Positions 1 through 4,475 of a DNA stretch of 4,475 bases are shown here, piece by piece (within the stretch, counting starts at the first letter, position 1; every line of letters starts with the position of its first letter). The notes under the pieces are model-generated. The model was not told the DNA's origin, made no database searches, and saw only the letters and a program-made list of their open reading frames with translations. The stretch lies in the IMG/VR virus record IMGVR_UViG_2565956708_000012, one strand, 5' to 3'. Origin of the DNA: a virus. Taxonomy: Duplodnaviria; Heunggongvirae; Uroviricota; Caudoviricetes. The translations under genes and the position numbers were made by a program.

Positions 1-186
1 CTTTACAAAGCGGAGGTAATACACCGTAAGAGCTGGAAAAACCGTGCAGAAGTGGAACTGGCCACACTCACGTGGGTGGACTGGTATAACAATCGACGAT
101 TGCTGGAAAGGCTGGGCCATACTCCTCCGGCAGAAGCAGAAAAAGCTTATTATGCTTCCATCGGAAACGATGATCTGGCAGCCTGA
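1..186 (+). CDS. IS3-family transposase OrfB (integrase/rve domain), C-terminal fragment
   Basis: Open frame from window start to TGA at 184..186, translating as LYKAEVIHRKSWKNRAEVELATLTWVDWYNNRRLLERLGHTPPAEAEKAYYASIGNDDLAA. The WxxWYNxxRxHxxLGxxPPAE motif is a typical C-terminal signature of IS3-family OrfB. Confidence 0.85.
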   Translation, partial: LYKAEVIHRKSWKNRAEVELATLTWVDWYNNRRLLERLGHTPPAEAEKAYYASIGNDDLAA

Positions 187-228
187 GTTCACAGATAAAA
201 CACTCTCCAGGAAACCCGGGGCGGTTCA
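1..228 (+). mobile_element. IS3-family insertion sequence (IS629/IS1203-like), right end, 5'-truncated by window edge
   Basis: Frame-1 translation of 1..186 gives an IS3-family OrfB C-terminus, and the element ends at ...CCCGGGGCGGTTCA (228). The last 25 bp (204..228) are the inverted complement of 4382..4406, matching 23/25. The IS629 name is from memory, not a search. Confidence 0.85.
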
Positions 229-462
229 GAGTAGCTTACGAAGCTTACCATCAGCGGCAACCATGTTCATATGAACACAGTTGAATTTGCTAATCTGCTT
301 CATGAGTTTTGTTTGCTGCGTTGACCAGCTCATTCCGAGGTTTTCAACGATTGGCTTCATCGCAACATATGCAACTCCGGCAGCCATGGCGGTGATAATT
401 TGCTGACCGTTGAATGGCACGTAAGAGGTGTTCACTGCTTCTAAAATTGCTATACTATTCAT
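226..462 (-). pseudogene. ant: Antirepressor (Ant/AntA-like) N-terminal fragment, 3'-truncated by the IS insertion
   Basis: ATG at 462..460 sits 9 nt after a GGAG (complement of 473..476). The 78 native codons ([44 protein letters not shown]...) resemble an AntA-type antirepressor N-terminus. The frame ends in a TGA formed by the IS terminus (complement of 226..228), and Ant proteins are normally several-fold longer. The 528 GTG start in the ORF track is an unsupported upstream extension. Confidence 0.55.
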
Positions 463-545
463 GTTGGTTTTTCTCCACGGATTTACCGACAACCGAAGCC
501 CTGACTGTTCCAGCAGTTGGGGCTTCACTGTTTTGATTTCTTTGC
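463..545 (+). ncRNA. Putative sar-like antisense RNA covering the ant ribosome-binding site
   Basis: Extended -10 TGcTATACT at 448..456 on the + strand predicts a start near 463. The transcript would be complementary to the ant SD and start region and end at the 495..526 hairpin plus T-rich tract. This is inferred from sequence and the P22 sar paradigm only. Confidence 0.25.
495..545 (+). terminator. Hairpin with downstream T-rich tract (intrinsic terminator candidate, + strand)
   Basis: A 13-bp stem (495..507 pairing with 514..526, two G-U wobbles, loop ttccag) is followed by actgTTTTgaTTTcTTT at 527..545. The T tract exists only in the + orientation. Confidence 0.35.
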
Positions 546-694
546 CGCATCAAGCATCACTTCTGAAAACGTGCGCTTGCCACTGAATACTCTTTCTCTT
601 CTCAATTTTTCGTTCGTGCCAAATGATTCGCCATGAACAAAATTTGGTCTTAAAATGGTAATCGCAATCTCTTTGACTACTGCATCCAAGCGAA

Positions 695-847
695 TCACAC
701 CGTTACCCCCTCTCTCTTCAGGCTGTCTATCAGGCGCTTGATAACCTCTGAGTTAAACGACCTGCACTCTTCCTTTGCCCTGCTACCGATAGCATCCTTT
801 AACGACTGCGGCATCCTTACCAAAATCTTACTTATTTCTTTCTCCAT
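695..847 (-). CDS. arc: Arc-like ribbon-helix-helix transcriptional repressor (50 aa)
   Basis: ATG at 847..845 follows GGAGGG with a 5-nt spacer. The product MEKEISKILVRMPQSLKDAIGSRAKEECRSFNSEVIKRLIDSLKREGVTV fits the Arc/MetJ RHH pattern (basic beta-strand xVRMPxxL, then RSxNSE helix) and P22 Arc length. It lies upstream of and co-oriented with the ant fragment. The 883 start in the ORF track is an unsupported extension. Confidence 0.7.
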   Translation of the reverse strand: MEKEISKILVRMPQSLKDAIGSRAKEECRSFNSEVIKRLIDSLKREGVTV

Positions 848-961
848 GTTACCCTCCACGCAAACAACTCTTTTCGAATACAAAAGATAGCAAAGTGAGT
901 ATATCTAGTCAAAATTTTTTTGCATACACTTTGCTATCAAATTGAATACCAAAGGTGTTAT
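848..961. promoter_or_regulatory. Divergent promoter/operator region between the arc-like and mnt-like genes
   Basis: 114-bp intergenic region. On the minus strand, a candidate -35 TTGACT (912..907) and -10 TATCTT (889..884) with a 17-bp spacer face the arc-like gene. On the plus strand, TTGCAT (920..925) is a possible -35, but the matching -10 is unclear. The region contains the inverted repeat listed next. Confidence 0.45.
886..938. promoter_or_regulatory. Perfect 12-bp inverted repeat GATAGCAAAGTG ... CACTTTGCTATC (candidate RHH operator half-sites)
   Basis: 886..897 and 927..938 are exact reverse complements, with centres about 41 bp apart. The left copy overlaps the predicted -10 of the minus-strand promoter. 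Confidence 0.5.
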
Positions 962-1210
962 ATGGCAAAGGGTGTGTCAATTTCTCCAACTACGGTAAGA
1001 ATCCCTGAATCTTTACGCGAGGCTCTTGCTGTCAGAGCATCAAAAAATGGTCGCTCTGTTAACTCCGAGATCGTCATGATTTTGCAAGCCGCGATTGATG
1101 AAGATAGGTCGCCAAAGTCAGTTGAGTCATTTGCTCAGCAAGAAGCTGATAAATTCAAAGAGGCGCTACTTGAGACGCTAAAGACCATGTATGCTAAGGA
1201 TGAAAAATAA
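962..1210 (+). CDS. mnt: Mnt-like ribbon-helix-helix repressor (82 aa)
   Basis: ATG at 962 is preceded by AAAGG. The product MAKGVSISPTTVRIPESLREALAVRASKNGRSVNSEIVMILQAAID... has an N-terminal RHH (GRSVNSE motif) and a C-terminal helical tail ending ...LETLKTMYAKDEK, the same size and architecture as P22 Mnt as I recall it. It is divergent from arc. The 920 TTG start in the ORF track is an unsupported extension. Confidence 0.6.
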   Translation: MAKGVSISPTTVRIPESLREALAVRASKNGRSVNSEIVMILQAAIDEDRSPKSVESFAQQEADKFKEALLETLKTMYAKDEK

Positions 1211-1746
1211 TGCTGCACACAATTCATTTCTTATGCCCTGTTAACACTGCCACTGTTGGGCAACTTCAGAACCACTGTCTCACCGCATTATCTCAAGGCG
1301 CAACTGAATTAAATATCCATATATCAAGTCAGGGAGGGGAAACTGCTGCTGGCTTTACTGCGTATAACTTTCTTAAGTCACTCCCTGTTACCGTTAGAAC
1401 TCACAACATAAGCAATGTTGAATCCATAGCTAATATCGTTTTCCTGGCTGGCTCAGAACGTTTCGCAAACCCATTATCAAGATTCCTGTTACATCCTCTA
1501 TTATGGTGCTTTGCCTCCCCAGCCGCCGACCATGCCAGATTGAGAGAGTACGGGAAATGCCTCGATAACGATCTTGATCGCTTCGTTGAGACGTTCAATA
1601 TCGACATCGGAACCCATATTAGGTGGGCATCCCTGATAGCAGACTCGACCATTTTGGATGCTAACAAGGCTCTTGAGCATGGCATAATTAATTCCATAAA
1701 AACTGCAAGGCTGGCATCCAATCAGGCAAACTGGTGGGTTGTTTGA
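1210..1746 (+). CDS. ClpP-fold (peptidase S14-like) serine protease homologue, 178 aa
   Basis: The start overlaps the upstream stop (TAATG at 1208..1212). By eye the translation aligns with E. coli ClpP: NIHISSQGGETAAGFTAY vs YINSPGGVITAGMSIYD, SNVESIANIVFLAG vs GQAASMGAFLLTAG, LLHPL vs MIHQP, and LEHGIINSI vs VEYGLVDSIL. Candidate Ser/His/Asp triad positions are occupied. It lacks the ClpP N-terminal segment. Confidence 0.6.
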   Translation: MLHTIHFLCPVNTATVGQLQNHCLTALSQGATELNIHISSQGGETAAGFTAYNFLKSLPVTVRTHNISNVESIANIVFLAGSERFANPLSRFLLHPLLWCFASPAADHARLREYGKCLDNDLDRFVETFNIDIGTHIRWASLIADSTILDANKALEHGIINSIKTARLASNQANWWVV

Positions 1747-1777
1747 TGGGTAAATCATGATTACTCCTTATAAAAAA

Positions 1778-1796
1778 CCCACCTGACGGTGGGTTT
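1778..1796. terminator. Bidirectional intrinsic terminator between convergent genes
   Basis: aaaaaaCCCACCtgacGGTGGGttt: a 6-bp GC-rich stem (1778..1783 with 1788..1793) and 4-nt loop, flanked by an A tract upstream and a T tract downstream. It sits between the ClpP-like stop (1746) and the YafO-like stop (1795..1797). Confidence 0.6.
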
Positions 1797-2244
1797 AGTC
1801 AAACATAGTGTTTCTAAAGTCTCTCGCATACCCTGCTAACACTCTCATTCTATTATGATTGTTAGCAGACATGTGAGCTACAGGATGAAAAAGAGCAATC
1901 AATGAATACCTGTTCTCATCAAAAAGATTTTGTGCATAAACGAGAGCGGTATTGGATGTTTTATGCCACTGCAACTTTTGCGGTGTGCTGATATCTGTGC
2001 CATTTTTTATTGGCTCAAATTTATTTTCACCAATTGCTAAATGAAGGTGCATAAGGCCTGCATCTTCAATATCAGGAGGTCGATGATAAGAGGTGTCTCT
2101 GCCAAAATAGCTGGGCAACGTTCCCGTAGACTTGTAGATGATAAAATCATCTACAAGTGTTTGTTTTAAATCAGGAAACTCAACAAAAACCGGGGAGAAA
2201 AAATAGTCAAAACTATCCTGATTATATTCCACGGTTACTTGCAT
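1795..2244 (-). CDS. YafO-family toxin (ribosome-dependent mRNA interferase family), 149 aa
   Basis: ATG at 2244..2242 follows GAGG with a 6-nt spacer. The translation aligns with E. coli YafO as I recall it: DFIIYKSTGTLPSYFGRDTSY vs DFISYKRDGVLPDIFGRDALY, HLHLAIGEN vs HIHLANEN, ALVYAQNLFDENRYSLIALFHP vs HLVYCQGAFDEQAWLLIAILKP, and a C-terminal NNHNRMR...ARDFR vs DNNQMHK...AEAFR. Confidence 0.7.
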   Translation of the reverse strand: MQVTVEYNQDSFDYFFSPVFVEFPDLKQTLVDDFIIYKSTGTLPSYFGRDTSYHRPPDIEDAGLMHLHLAIGENKFEPIKNGTDISTPQKLQWHKTSNTALVYAQNLFDENRYSLIALFHPVAHMSANNHNRMRVLAGYARDFRNTMFD

Positions 2245-2252
2245 GTTTTACC

Positions 2253-2819
2253 TCAGTGGAAGTTACCAGAGTGAAACACACGAGTCCCGTGCTCAGCAAG
2301 CGCACGCAAACCAGCCATATCTACGGAACTATCAAAAACAACCGGAACACATGAGCGTTGTTTAATAAGACTATTCAGGTTGGTTACGGCAGATCTGGCA
2401 TCAGCAACAACGATATAGATATCTCTTGCGATCTCTTTAAAATCAGCAGAAGCTTCTTTGAATACCGATTTCATTGCCCCTTCAAGTCCTCTCAATTGAT
2501 GCTCTATCAATCGAGACTTTTCTGGTTCAATGATAGACAACACATTGTCTACATTCTCATCGGTAGCGTTTGCAAGAACACGATAAGCGTATTTCAGCAT
2601 TCGAGACAATTCTTTAATCGAAGACACCGCCTCATGAAGCTCATCATTAGCCCGTTCACTGCTGAATGAGGATTGATGGTAAGCGTGCTGAACGTTATCA
2701 GTAACAACCACCTCACAACTGAACGCAGAAGCTTGCTGTAATAGCAAACCTATTGCGACTCCAGCTTTGGCAGCGTTCAAGCTAAACATTTCATCAATCC
2801 CATTAGTCTCATTGCTCAT
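2253..2819 (-). CDS. Hypothetical protein (188 aa), upstream operon partner of the YafO-family toxin; putative non-canonical antitoxin or regulator
   Basis: ATG at 2819..2817 is preceded by AGGAGG with a 5-nt spacer. The stop at 2255..2253 lies 8 bp before the YafO-like ATG. I recognise no family. The TTG start at 2849 in the ORF track is less likely than the RBS-supported ATG. Confidence 0.55.
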   Translation of the reverse strand: MSNETNGIDEMFSLNAAKAGVAIGLLLQQASAFSCEVVVTDNVQHAYHQSSFSSERANDELHEAVSSIKELSRMLKYAYRVLANATDENVDNVLSIIEPEKSRLIEHQLRGLEGAMKSVFKEASADFKEIARDIYIVVADARSAVTNLNSLIKQRSCVPVVFDSSVDMAGLRALAEHGTRVFHSGNFH

Positions 2820-2886
2820 ACAAACCTCCTTCTTATCGGAGATTATCAATAGCTATGCATCCATTGAATACACGCTATGCGCAATA

Positions 2887-2915
2887 AGTTTACGTCACGT
2901 GATATCATTATGCAA
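2887..2915 (-). promoter_or_regulatory. Candidate sigma70 promoter for the partner/YafO operon, with a palindrome in the spacer
   Basis: On the minus strand, -35 TTGCAT (2915..2910), a 17-bp spacer, and -10 TAAACT (2892..2887). The spacer contains the palindrome TCACGTGA (2895..2902) overlapping GATATC (2901..2906). Confidence 0.35.
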
Positions 2916-2994
2916 CCACCGTTCTATCACCGACTAACTTTACTCCCACTCCTATACATCATCTGGTATCCTGCGCAAAACTAAGGAGGTTGGT

Positions 2995-3345
2995 GTGAAT
3001 GCTCAGTCTGTCATCATGGTTTTCCTTGGGCTGATTGTCGCAAAACTATATCCAGACTGGTGGAAAGGGGCATTAGCTACTGTCGCCATCTATTTGCTTT
3101 TATCCATCGTTAAGCGATCACTCGCTGAGACCGTAAATCAAGCAAAACGTTTCTCATTTAAGAGTTTAATAAACTATGTTACTGGGCTTATTTTTTGCCT
3201 TTCAATTCTGATCGCTTCGGCTTTTTTGCCCGTATCAATAGCTAATTTTTTTGGCGCACCATATGAGGTAGGTTATCTATTCTCTGTTTCCTGTCTTGCC
3301 ATTGCTCTTCTTTACCTGTGGACGAGATCAAAGAATAAAAATTAG
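2995..3345 (+). CDS. Small integral membrane protein, 116 aa, about four predicted transmembrane helices
   Basis: GTG start at 2995 is preceded by a strong AAGGAGG (2983..2989) with a 5-nt spacer. The translation has four hydrophobic stretches (about residues 5-19, 25-39, 58-78, 92-109) separated by short charged loops, with a basic C-terminus. The gene is AT-rich relative to the flanks and divergent from the partner/YafO operon. Confidence 0.6.
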   Translation: MNAQSVIMVFLGLIVAKLYPDWWKGALATVAIYLLLSIVKRSLAETVNQAKRFSFKSLINYVTGLIFCLSILIASAFLPVSIANFFGAPYEVGYLFSVSCLAIALLYLWTRSKNKN

Positions 3346-3362
3346 CCATCCGTGGCTGCCAG

Positions 3363-4381
3363 TTATTGAGCTTCTTTTTGTGATGCCTGTGCGACTCTGG
3401 TGAGCGATTGTGTGACCGTACTGATCGCTCTGTCATATGCTGTGCTACCTTTTGGCGTATTTGCCAGACGTAACAAGGCATTTCGTATAACAGGGCTTTC
3501 GTATGCCTTCGCAGCTCCTCCTACGACACCAGCAGCAGGAACAACAAACGCAGCCGTTTTTAGCATCCCCGCTAATACTGCTGCGTTTATGATGCCACCA
3601 CCAACTAACAATCCATAAAGCTGCTGACCATTTAAGTTTTGAACGTTCGCTTTTGCCGCGTGTCTTGTATCGTTGAGGTATTTAATAACGCCGTCCAGTT
3701 CCTTTCCATGTACGCCTTTAAAGAAAGTTGCTGATTGCTTCCTGTTCCGGTGTAACGCATTAATAAACTTTTCAACACTAATATTTCCAGACGGATCAGT
3801 CGCCTTATCTACAGCATTCTGAACTATGGCTGCTCGTGCGTTTTGCCTACCATTGTCATCCAGAAGCCTGTAAAGCTGAGAACGTTCTGATGGGTTTTGG
3901 CTAAAAACGAGTTTTGTTACATCCTCAGGTGTAGCCTTGCCGCTGGCTATTGCCTTTTGAACGCGCGTTCTTCCCATCATGTCATTGAATCTAGCCCATG
4001 AGCGATCAACCCTAGACATATTGGCAGCTTCTTCTGAGCCTAGTTTTTGGGATACTGCTTTTTTCATATCCGCTGTATATGCCTTGTAGACAATATCGCT
4101 GGCTTTCTGGAGCGTGTCTTTATCAACAGTCTCGTTTGAATTCATGAACCGCTTTCGAAGGTCAGTTCTGTTTTCTCTCGCCAGACGCAGGTCATTGGGT
4201 CCGCTGGTGATATCGTCTTTAAATTGCTGCAAGACTTTTACCGCGGCTCTATCCTGAGATTTGCCCGGGCGGCTTAACACGGCAATCTGATTGTCGATAG
4301 CTTTTACCGTGTTTGAGAGATCGACAGGGGTATCCCCCATAGCGTCAATTATGCGGTTATATCGCTTTCCTGCTGCCTCAA
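3363..4381 (-). pseudogene. Large protein, 5'-truncated by IS insertion; possibly a phage DNA-ejection/internal protein (gp16-like by synteny)
   Basis: The minus-strand frame is open from the TAA stop (complement of 3363..3365) through the IS junction at 4381/4382 and on to a stop inside the IS. The first ATG (4340) has no SD. The product has a glycine-rich hydrophobic segment (LLVGGGIINAAVLAGMLKTAAFVVPAAGVVGGAAKA). The gp16-like call rests only on its position relative to mnt. Confidence 0.4.
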
Positions 4382-4475
4382 TGAACCGCCCCGGGAATCC
4401 TGGAGACTAAACTTCCTGAGAAAGAGGTAAACAGGATGACTAAAAATACTCGTTTTTCCCCCGAAGTCCGTCAAC
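4382..4475 (+). mobile_element. IS3-family insertion sequence (IS629/IS1203-like), left end, truncated by window edge
   Basis: Terminus TGAACCGCCCCGGGAATCCTGGAGA (4382..4406) is the inverted repeat of 204..228. It is followed by an RBS (GAGG) and the orfA start. It has the same orientation as the copy at 1..228. Confidence 0.85.
4436..4475 (+). CDS. IS3-family transposase OrfA, N-terminal fragment (MTKNTRFSPEVRQ...)
   Basis: ATG at 4436 is 7 nt after AGAGG. The N-terminus MTKNTRFSPEVRQ is the characteristic start of IS3-family OrfA (helix-turn-helix protein) of the IS629 group, from memory. Confidence 0.8.
   Translation, partial: MTKNTRFSPEVRQ

Follow-up and report, generated by a model that had tools for sequence, protein, structure and literature searches.

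Does the plus strand opposite the start of the antirepressor gene ant, in the remains of a P22-like prophage, hold a sar gene? The small antisense RNA sar was among the first antisense regulators described (1987), and the P22 RNA is said to have been studied by Liao et al. (1987), Wu et al. (1987), and Schaefer and McClure (1997). A preliminary description of the locus, made from its letters alone, had proposed a sar-like RNA that starts from an extended -10 element, ends at a hairpin with a T-rich tract and is organised as in P22. We analysed the whole stretch of 4,475 bases in which the locus lies (hereafter the window), and found that positions 448..~533 of the plus strand very probably represent a sar gene in intact form, whose product is the cis-encoded antisense RNA known from the immunity I (immI) region of P22-like phages.

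The prophage fragment and its immI region

What the window contains is part of a broken, P22-like (Lederbergvirus) prophage of the E. coli type, with a copy of an IS3-family element on either side. Apart from sar itself, it holds the following features.

1..228, plus strand: 3' end of the left IS3-family element, which truncates ant ('IS3 family transposase' in matching genomes; the phage-type match begins at 227)
229..462, minus strand: ant', the first 78 antirepressor codons (Pfam P22_AR_N, E 2.9e-18, profile positions 2-66 of 115 only)
525..698, minus strand: orf57, 57 aa, between arc and ant (from the ORF list; phrog_17642, function unknown, E 1.3e-43)
695..847, minus strand: arc-like ribbon-helix-helix repressor, first gene of the Pant operon (Pfam Arc, E 5.1e-12; 39% identical to P22 Arc)
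884..912, minus strand: Pant-like promoter (TTGACT, 17-nt spacer, TATCTT, with TG), a consensus match only, from the promoter scan
962..1210, plus strand: mnt-like repressor, divergent from Pant (Pfam Arc / RHH, E 9.5e-11; 36% identical to P22 Mnt)
1210-1746, plus strand: ClpP-family gene, 178 aa (Pfam CLP_protease, E 2.2e-11; PHROG 'head maturation protease')
1795-2244, minus strand: YafO-family type II toxin gene (Pfam E 3.4e-22)
2253-2819, minus strand: 188-aa ORF of unknown function preceding the YafO-type gene (phrog_8416)
2995-3345, plus strand: small membrane ORF
3363-4340, minus strand: C-terminal part of a DNA-injection protein gene, cut by the right IS copy
~4382-4475, plus strand: right IS3-family copy, in the same orientation as the left one

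The gene order of mnt-like (plus), Pant-like (minus), arc-like (minus), sar (plus) and ant' (minus) is the P22-type immI order, with an extra ORF and a truncated ant. In relative position, the Pant-like promoter agrees with the Pant of P22 and of epsilon34, and as predicted it would yield an arc-orf57-ant' mRNA, the target of sar. The protein encoded by ant' is 71% identical to the N-terminus of P22 Ant; its stop codon (226-228) is supplied by the IS end, and related genomes annotate it as an incomplete pseudogene. The extra ORF, annotated as 'hypothetical protein' WP_000620145.1, gave no match in a Pfam search. Its start and the arc stop share an ATGA overlap, and its own stop codon, TGA (527-525), is within the base of the sar terminator stem.

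In a comparison with E. coli genomes, several proved to contain intact prophages that match window 227..4385 at 100% identity; there, ant has its full length of 903 nt and the tailspike gene comes next. The copies of the sar sequence in E. coli ATCC 11775 (DSM 30083) and MS7163 are likewise 100% identical. The exact IS/ant junction of the window was absent from complete E. coli RefSeq genomes, where eight apparent full matches each consisted of two separated pieces, and a 30-nt pattern spanning the junction was not found in species-representative genomes. In eight genomes the IS lies at other ant offsets (spans of 372, 398 and 669 nt), and ant has thus been truncated beside the IS at several points. 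The terminal sequences of the IS3-family element presumably resemble those of IS629/IS1203.

Several observations concern the region beyond mnt. The ATG of the ClpP-family gene follows immediately after the TAA of the mnt-like gene, which is an odd site for a protease gene (an ant 'moron' in a P22-like prophage). Between the convergent ClpP-like and YafO-like genes, the sequence AAAAAACCCACCTGACGGTGGGTTT (~1773-1800) forms a hairpin with an A-run on one side and a T-run on the other, and by eye it looks like a bidirectional intrinsic terminator. The 188-aa ORF could be the partner of the YafO-type toxin, making the pair a possible toxin-antitoxin system or defence cargo in the moron region.

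Family, extent and promoter of the candidate RNA

The sar gene and its target site comprise the following elements.

428..433, plus strand: -35-like hexamer GTGTTC of Psar (2/6 matches to TTGACA), 17 nt upstream of the -10
448..456, plus strand: extended -10 element of Psar, TGCTATACT (TGcTATACT), inside ant codons 2-5 (N-S-I-A)
463..529, plus strand: sar RNA within the limits of the Rfam match (E 2.7e-17 for RF00262 at model positions 1-68 of 68; 83.9 bits, with a gathering score of 43)
463..490, plus strand: stem-loop 1, with a 6-bp stem pairing 463-468 with 485-490 (Rfam structure line, minimum-free-energy fold and covariation)
473..476, minus strand: ant Shine-Dalgarno sequence GGAG, the target of sar, 10 nt upstream of the AUG (read from the sequence)
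495..526, plus strand: stem-loop 2, an intrinsic-terminator hairpin of 14 pairs (7 G-C) with the 4-nt loop UCCA (terminator scan)
527..544, plus strand: U-rich tail ACTGTTTTGATTTCTTTG (eight-phage alignment), with the presumed termination point

Through an Rfam covariance-model search, which the preliminary description had suggested, we found that RF00262 is the sole Rfam match in the whole window. The match spans the full model in 67 nt (463-529), one base of the consensus being deleted immediately after the stem, and its score of 83.9 bits stands well above the gathering score of 43. The same model gave 97.8 bits for P22, 95.6 for epsilon34, 87.7 for vB_EcoP-611R6, 83.9 for both phiv205-1 and the prophage of E. 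coli MS7163, 77.3 for S.Kent 1-2-1 and 57.5 for Cronobacter phage ES2. Together with the annotation of epsilon34 described below, these scores bear out the proposed likeness to the organisation of P22 sar.

The minimum-free-energy fold of 463..545 (-32.4 kcal/mol, z = -5.43, with none of 200 shuffles as low) is the two-hairpin structure of Rfam, a small 5' hairpin followed by a long 3' one. The loop of the first bears the anti-Shine-Dalgarno sequence CUCC (473-476). The second, directly followed by ACTGTTTTGA, lies exactly where the preliminary description had placed a hairpin and T-rich tract, and the terminator scan counted 14 pairs in it instead of the 13 given there. Since the RF00262 match ends at 529 and a U-run follows at 530..533, an RNA of about 67-72 nt is likelier than a transcript reaching 545; of the length of 70-80 nt first proposed, the lower figure fits this estimate and the upper one, with an end at 545, does not. 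By analogy with the P22 RNA, the length of which is 69 nt (PMC3134472), the 3' end probably falls within the U-run at ~530-534.

The extended -10 element announced at 448..456 is indeed there, with TG at 448-449 and TATACT at 451-456, and the ant ATG is the reverse complement of the CAT at 460-462. Psar was not listed by a generic sigma-70 promoter scan that required at least 4/6 matches in the -35, because its -35 is poor (2/6). As the scan demands that much of the -35, we set its missing entry aside as an argument against an extended -10 promoter, a promoter type that a poor -35 fits. In epsilon34, the annotated promoter feature spans 29 nt and, by alignment, begins with the counterpart of GTGTTC. 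A single TGNTATAMT motif is present in the window, with 0.27 occurrences expected and at least one match in 50 of 200 shuffles; at a quarter of the shuffles, the bare motif is therefore no evidence alone, and the -10 owes its significance to its position, its conservation and the Rfam match.

Conservation was examined in two sets. Alignment of eight phages and prophages showed variable flanks, but no variation in TGCTATACT, in the CAT or in the first RNA bases. A separate set of 126 loci was gathered by hairpin sequence alone, and 101 of them carry TGCTATACT as the -10. The other 25 have TGCTACACT (seven loci), TGCTAAGCT (seven), TGATATACT (five), TGCTAAACT (two) or one each of TGCTAAATT, TGCTACATT, CGCTACAAT and CTGTACACT. 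TAnnnT is kept in 126/126 and the TG extension in 124/126, and the distance from ATG to hairpin stays at 30-34 nt across the set, over several unrelated ant N-terminal contexts.

These results bear on an alternative in which the structure at 495..526 is a mere terminator for plus-strand read-through, either antisense transcription over ant or read-out from the IS, and TGCTATACT is conserved as Ser-Ile-Ala codons. The -10 does lie within coding sequence, its -35 is weak, and the orientation of the left IS would send read-out towards the hairpin; part of the -10 conservation could be protein constraint, the conserved S-I-A codons overlapping the element. However, the variants that replace Ile by Leu or Val (TAAACT, TAAGCT, TACACT) still keep positions -12, -11 and -7 as well as the TG, which points to selection for the promoter in addition to the protein, and the rare codons AGT-ATA-GCA persist over unrelated downstream coding contexts. 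Intact phages, moreover, encode nothing upstream on the plus strand that would need a terminator, and Psar of P22 was reportedly characterised in vitro by Liao et al. in 1987. We consider this alternative highly improbable, and read the element as Psar.

Covariation and strand assignment

For the structure test, we used 28 distinct sar-like RNAs that had been gathered by the promoter/ATG anchor, independently of the RNA body, and aligned by MAFFT without a structure reference. RNAalifold recovered the 5' stem and a 13-pair 3' hairpin from this alignment. Standard pairs occupied 96.2% of the cells, as against 24-50% when the partners were slid by 1-3 columns, and seven pairs had changed on both sides; the covariation score was 0.363, compared to 0.204 in shuffles, and was reached by none of 500. 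One of the inner pairs of stem 1 is GC in 13 RNAs, AU in 10 and UA in 2. In stem-loop 2, four of the 13 RNAalifold pairs had changed on both sides, with 97.2% of the cells paired. The outer three pairs of stem 1 were not counted because they are out of register in the MAFFT alignment; by eye, they are kept in each class (GUUGGU/ACCGAC, GUCAAU/GUUGAU, GUCGU/ACGAU and GUCAGU/ACUGGC). Both hairpins are thus supported by compensatory changes in the aligned sequences.

Because the two members of an antisense pair share their Watson-Crick stems, covariation alone cannot assign the strand, and wobble pairs were used for that purpose. What had to be weighed here is whether the hairpins are structure of the ant mRNA leader only, a translational or processing signal on the minus strand with no separate plus-strand RNA. 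In favour of this, the minus strand also forms a version of the large hairpin, and the Watson-Crick evidence above is blind to strand. The wobble test, however, counted 80 G·U cells versus 2 A·C cells in the 28 RNAs, so that wobbles are tolerated only in the plus-strand reading, and stem-loop 2 has two internal G·U pairs on the plus strand only. So large an excess of G·U over A·C indicates that the fold was selected on the sar strand and not on the ant leader.

The folding energies point the same way. The plus strand gave the more stable fold in 28/28 RNAs (mean -29.3 versus -19.4 kcal/mol), the minus-strand fold being weaker by about 10 kcal/mol, and in the window the values were -32.4 kcal/mol for the plus strand versus -22.4 kcal/mol for the minus strand, with z of -5.43 and only -1.94, respectively. 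The T-run 3' of the hairpin exists on the plus strand only, and the conserved extended -10 stands upstream at a fixed distance, also on the plus strand. A structure that serves the ant leader alone, the finding that the preliminary description had named as fatal to its proposal, is therefore a most remote prospect, and the hairpins are best read as those of a plus-strand RNA.

Target, distribution and comparison with known systems

Complementarity between the sar RNA and the ant leader is perfect over leader positions -1 to about -67. With the RNA starting at 463/464, directly after the CAT, the Shine-Dalgarno sequence and the leader are covered and the AUG is not; the preliminary description had the transcript complementary to the Shine-Dalgarno sequence and the initiation region, which applies to the former and to the leader but not to the start codon. 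The P22 record X01916 annotates a ribosome-binding site at the homologous place. Family, structure and complementarity were all observed directly on this copy of sar.

For its start, its 3' end and its repressing action, P22 serves as the model. Psar, embedded in ant codons 2-5, would start transcription at 463/464 beside the ant start codon and give a sar RNA of ~67-72 nt, in which a 5' stem-loop with the anti-Shine-Dalgarno CUCC would be followed by the 14-bp terminator hairpin and the U-run, with termination expected a few nt into the run. The RNA would pair with the ant mRNA leader and occlude the ribosome-binding site, and translation of Ant would be blocked; as in P22, repression would also operate in trans. 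P22 sar binds the ribosome-binding site of ant (PMC7968456, PMC10732415) and has been reported to be active in trans (PMC10732415), and small-RNA sequencing of P22 gave reads across sar during infection (PMC13397905).

Whether this copy still does anything is a separate matter. We see an even chance that it is a true sar by descent and yet a silent relic here, untranscribed or without effect because ant is destroyed, a state that is compatible with membership of the family. Since the IS3-family element cut ant after codon 78, sar has no productive cis target; its biological activity in the remnant may be nil, and at most it could act in trans on another phage with an identical ant leader. The remark in the preliminary description that the element has survived the truncation of ant is true and uninformative: with 227..4385 identical at 100% to intact prophages there has been no time for decay, and the intactness of sar reflects a recent insertion and not purifying selection in the remnant. 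Against silence, the entire ant leader is intact, as are mnt, arc and Pant, so that transcription of sar and of its target leader could still occur; P22 sar, moreover, reportedly acts in trans.

The element as such is already known, with an existing Rfam family, an annotation in epsilon34 and identical copies in many E. coli prophages. We found the sar region in 340 of 5,426 complete E. coli genomes (~6%) and in 57 phage records, mostly of Salmonella. Prophages of Entomohabitans, Tatumella, Lonsdalea, Pluralibacter, Pectobacterium and Xenorhabdus also scored above the Rfam threshold; among the genome-contig matches to the hairpin pattern, only these six Enterobacterales loci passed it. In E. 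coli RefSeq prophage records (e.g. NZ_CP026853.1 and NZ_CP033092.2) sar is unannotated, with 'hypothetical protein' and 'Ant' entries under the match. The practical point is that sar goes unannotated in records of E. coli P22-like prophages despite carriage of ~6%.

Two groups of candidates were not accepted as sar. The hairpin core AAGCCCTGACT...AGTCAGGGCTT also occurs in genome contigs of Muribaculaceae, Paenibacillus, Catenulispora, Hymenobacter and other distant taxa; several of these hairpins are perfect palindromes that match both strands, and we read the distant matches as probably convergent generic palindromic terminators. Six loci with the same promoter/ATG anchor and different terminator-ended bodies were judged chance matches and not sar analogues, the frame that opens at the ATG being an implausible protein of 14-94 aa. 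In one further contig (IMGVR_UViG_3300026549_000014), the anchor TGCTATACTnnnCATGT opens a different antirepressor-type ORF (MESIAQVIRVDEDSMTISARDLHEALGV...), and the opposite strand carries an unrelated short body ending in GCCGCCG...CGGCGGCTTTTG; this single case may be a sar analogue outside RF00262.

The sar gene lies at a mosaic boundary. Homology with epsilon34 (98.7%) and with P22 (87.8%) stops at window 527/528, the 3' end of sar, and the N-terminus of Ant is 71% identical to that of P22 while Arc and Mnt reach 39% and 36%, which marks the terminator hairpin as the mosaic joint. In viral contigs, three different 5' classes are joined to the window-type tail and several to the P22-type tail; the 5' stem-loop falls into at least five sequence classes with compensating stem changes, and the terminator hairpin is nearly of one kind. 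From these sequence patterns, the near-invariant hairpin appears to mark a recombination joint between ant modules and arc/mnt modules, and the 5' classes may be specificity types matched to different ant leaders. With orf57 here and an unrelated 73-aa ORF in vB_EcoP-611R6, the arc-ant junction is a variable cargo slot. Two further ideas come from sequence comparison only. In one, the 5' domains, each fitted to its own ant leader and Shine-Dalgarno region, would be exchangeable specificity types and the hairpin would also serve as a recombination hot spot; in the other, a mnt/arc/sar remnant without ant would shield resident prophages from the antirepressor of incoming phages of the same class. 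We regard both as unlikely. Modular 5' domains on a constant terminator at a mosaic boundary are mildly interesting in comparative terms.

Compared with P22 itself, the window copy has the same promoter element TGCTATACT in ant codons 2-5, a start next to the ant ATG, the same two-hairpin architecture and terminator stem sequence, and the same complementarity to the ant Shine-Dalgarno sequence and leader. It differs in loop 1 (CCACGG in the window copy, CCAAGG in P22), in one stem-1 pair (G-C in the window copy, G·U in P22), in loop 2 (UCCA in the window copy, UACC in P22) and in one base deleted after the stem. Its tail (ACTGTTTTGATTTCTTTG; ACUGUUUUGAUUUC; ACUGUUUUGAUUUCUUUG) is richer in U than that of P22 (AACTTTACGCGCC; AACUUUACGCGCC), which makes it, if anything, a better intrinsic terminator. 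Unlike in P22, ant is truncated, and the gene upstream of the terminator is orf57 instead of arc, which lies one gene further away. The sar gene is thus not directly in the arc-ant intercistronic position of the P22 map; that position is not part of the Rfam definition, and other sar-positive phages also have an extra ORF between arc and ant.

Among annotated genomes, epsilon34 (NC_011976) is 98.7% identical in DNA over window 227..527 (ant' and sar). At the homologous site, between arc and ant, it annotates a misc_RNA 'sar: small antisense regulatory RNA', together with a promoter 'located by similarity with P22 Psar', and its genome paper assigns sar to the immI region (PMC2629481). Beyond sar comes a P22-type arc in epsilon34, but orf57 with a diverged arc/mnt module in the window. 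The E. coli Lederbergvirus prophages, phiv205-1 and vB_EcoP-611R6 carry sar in identical or near-identical form, together with a full-length ant and an extra ORF between it and arc, and their records leave sar unannotated; in vB_EcoP-611R6, the slot between arc and ant holds the unrelated 73-aa ORF (phrog_11805) and not orf57. Lambda OOP, directed against cII, and the N15 CA RNA, directed against an antirepressor, are likewise short terminator-ended antisense RNAs that repress post-transcriptionally (PMC10732415, PMC3134472), without sequence relationship to sar. OOP depends on RNase III, which cleaves at the 3' end of cII, and the CA RNA is processed, whereas sar covers the ribosome-binding site.
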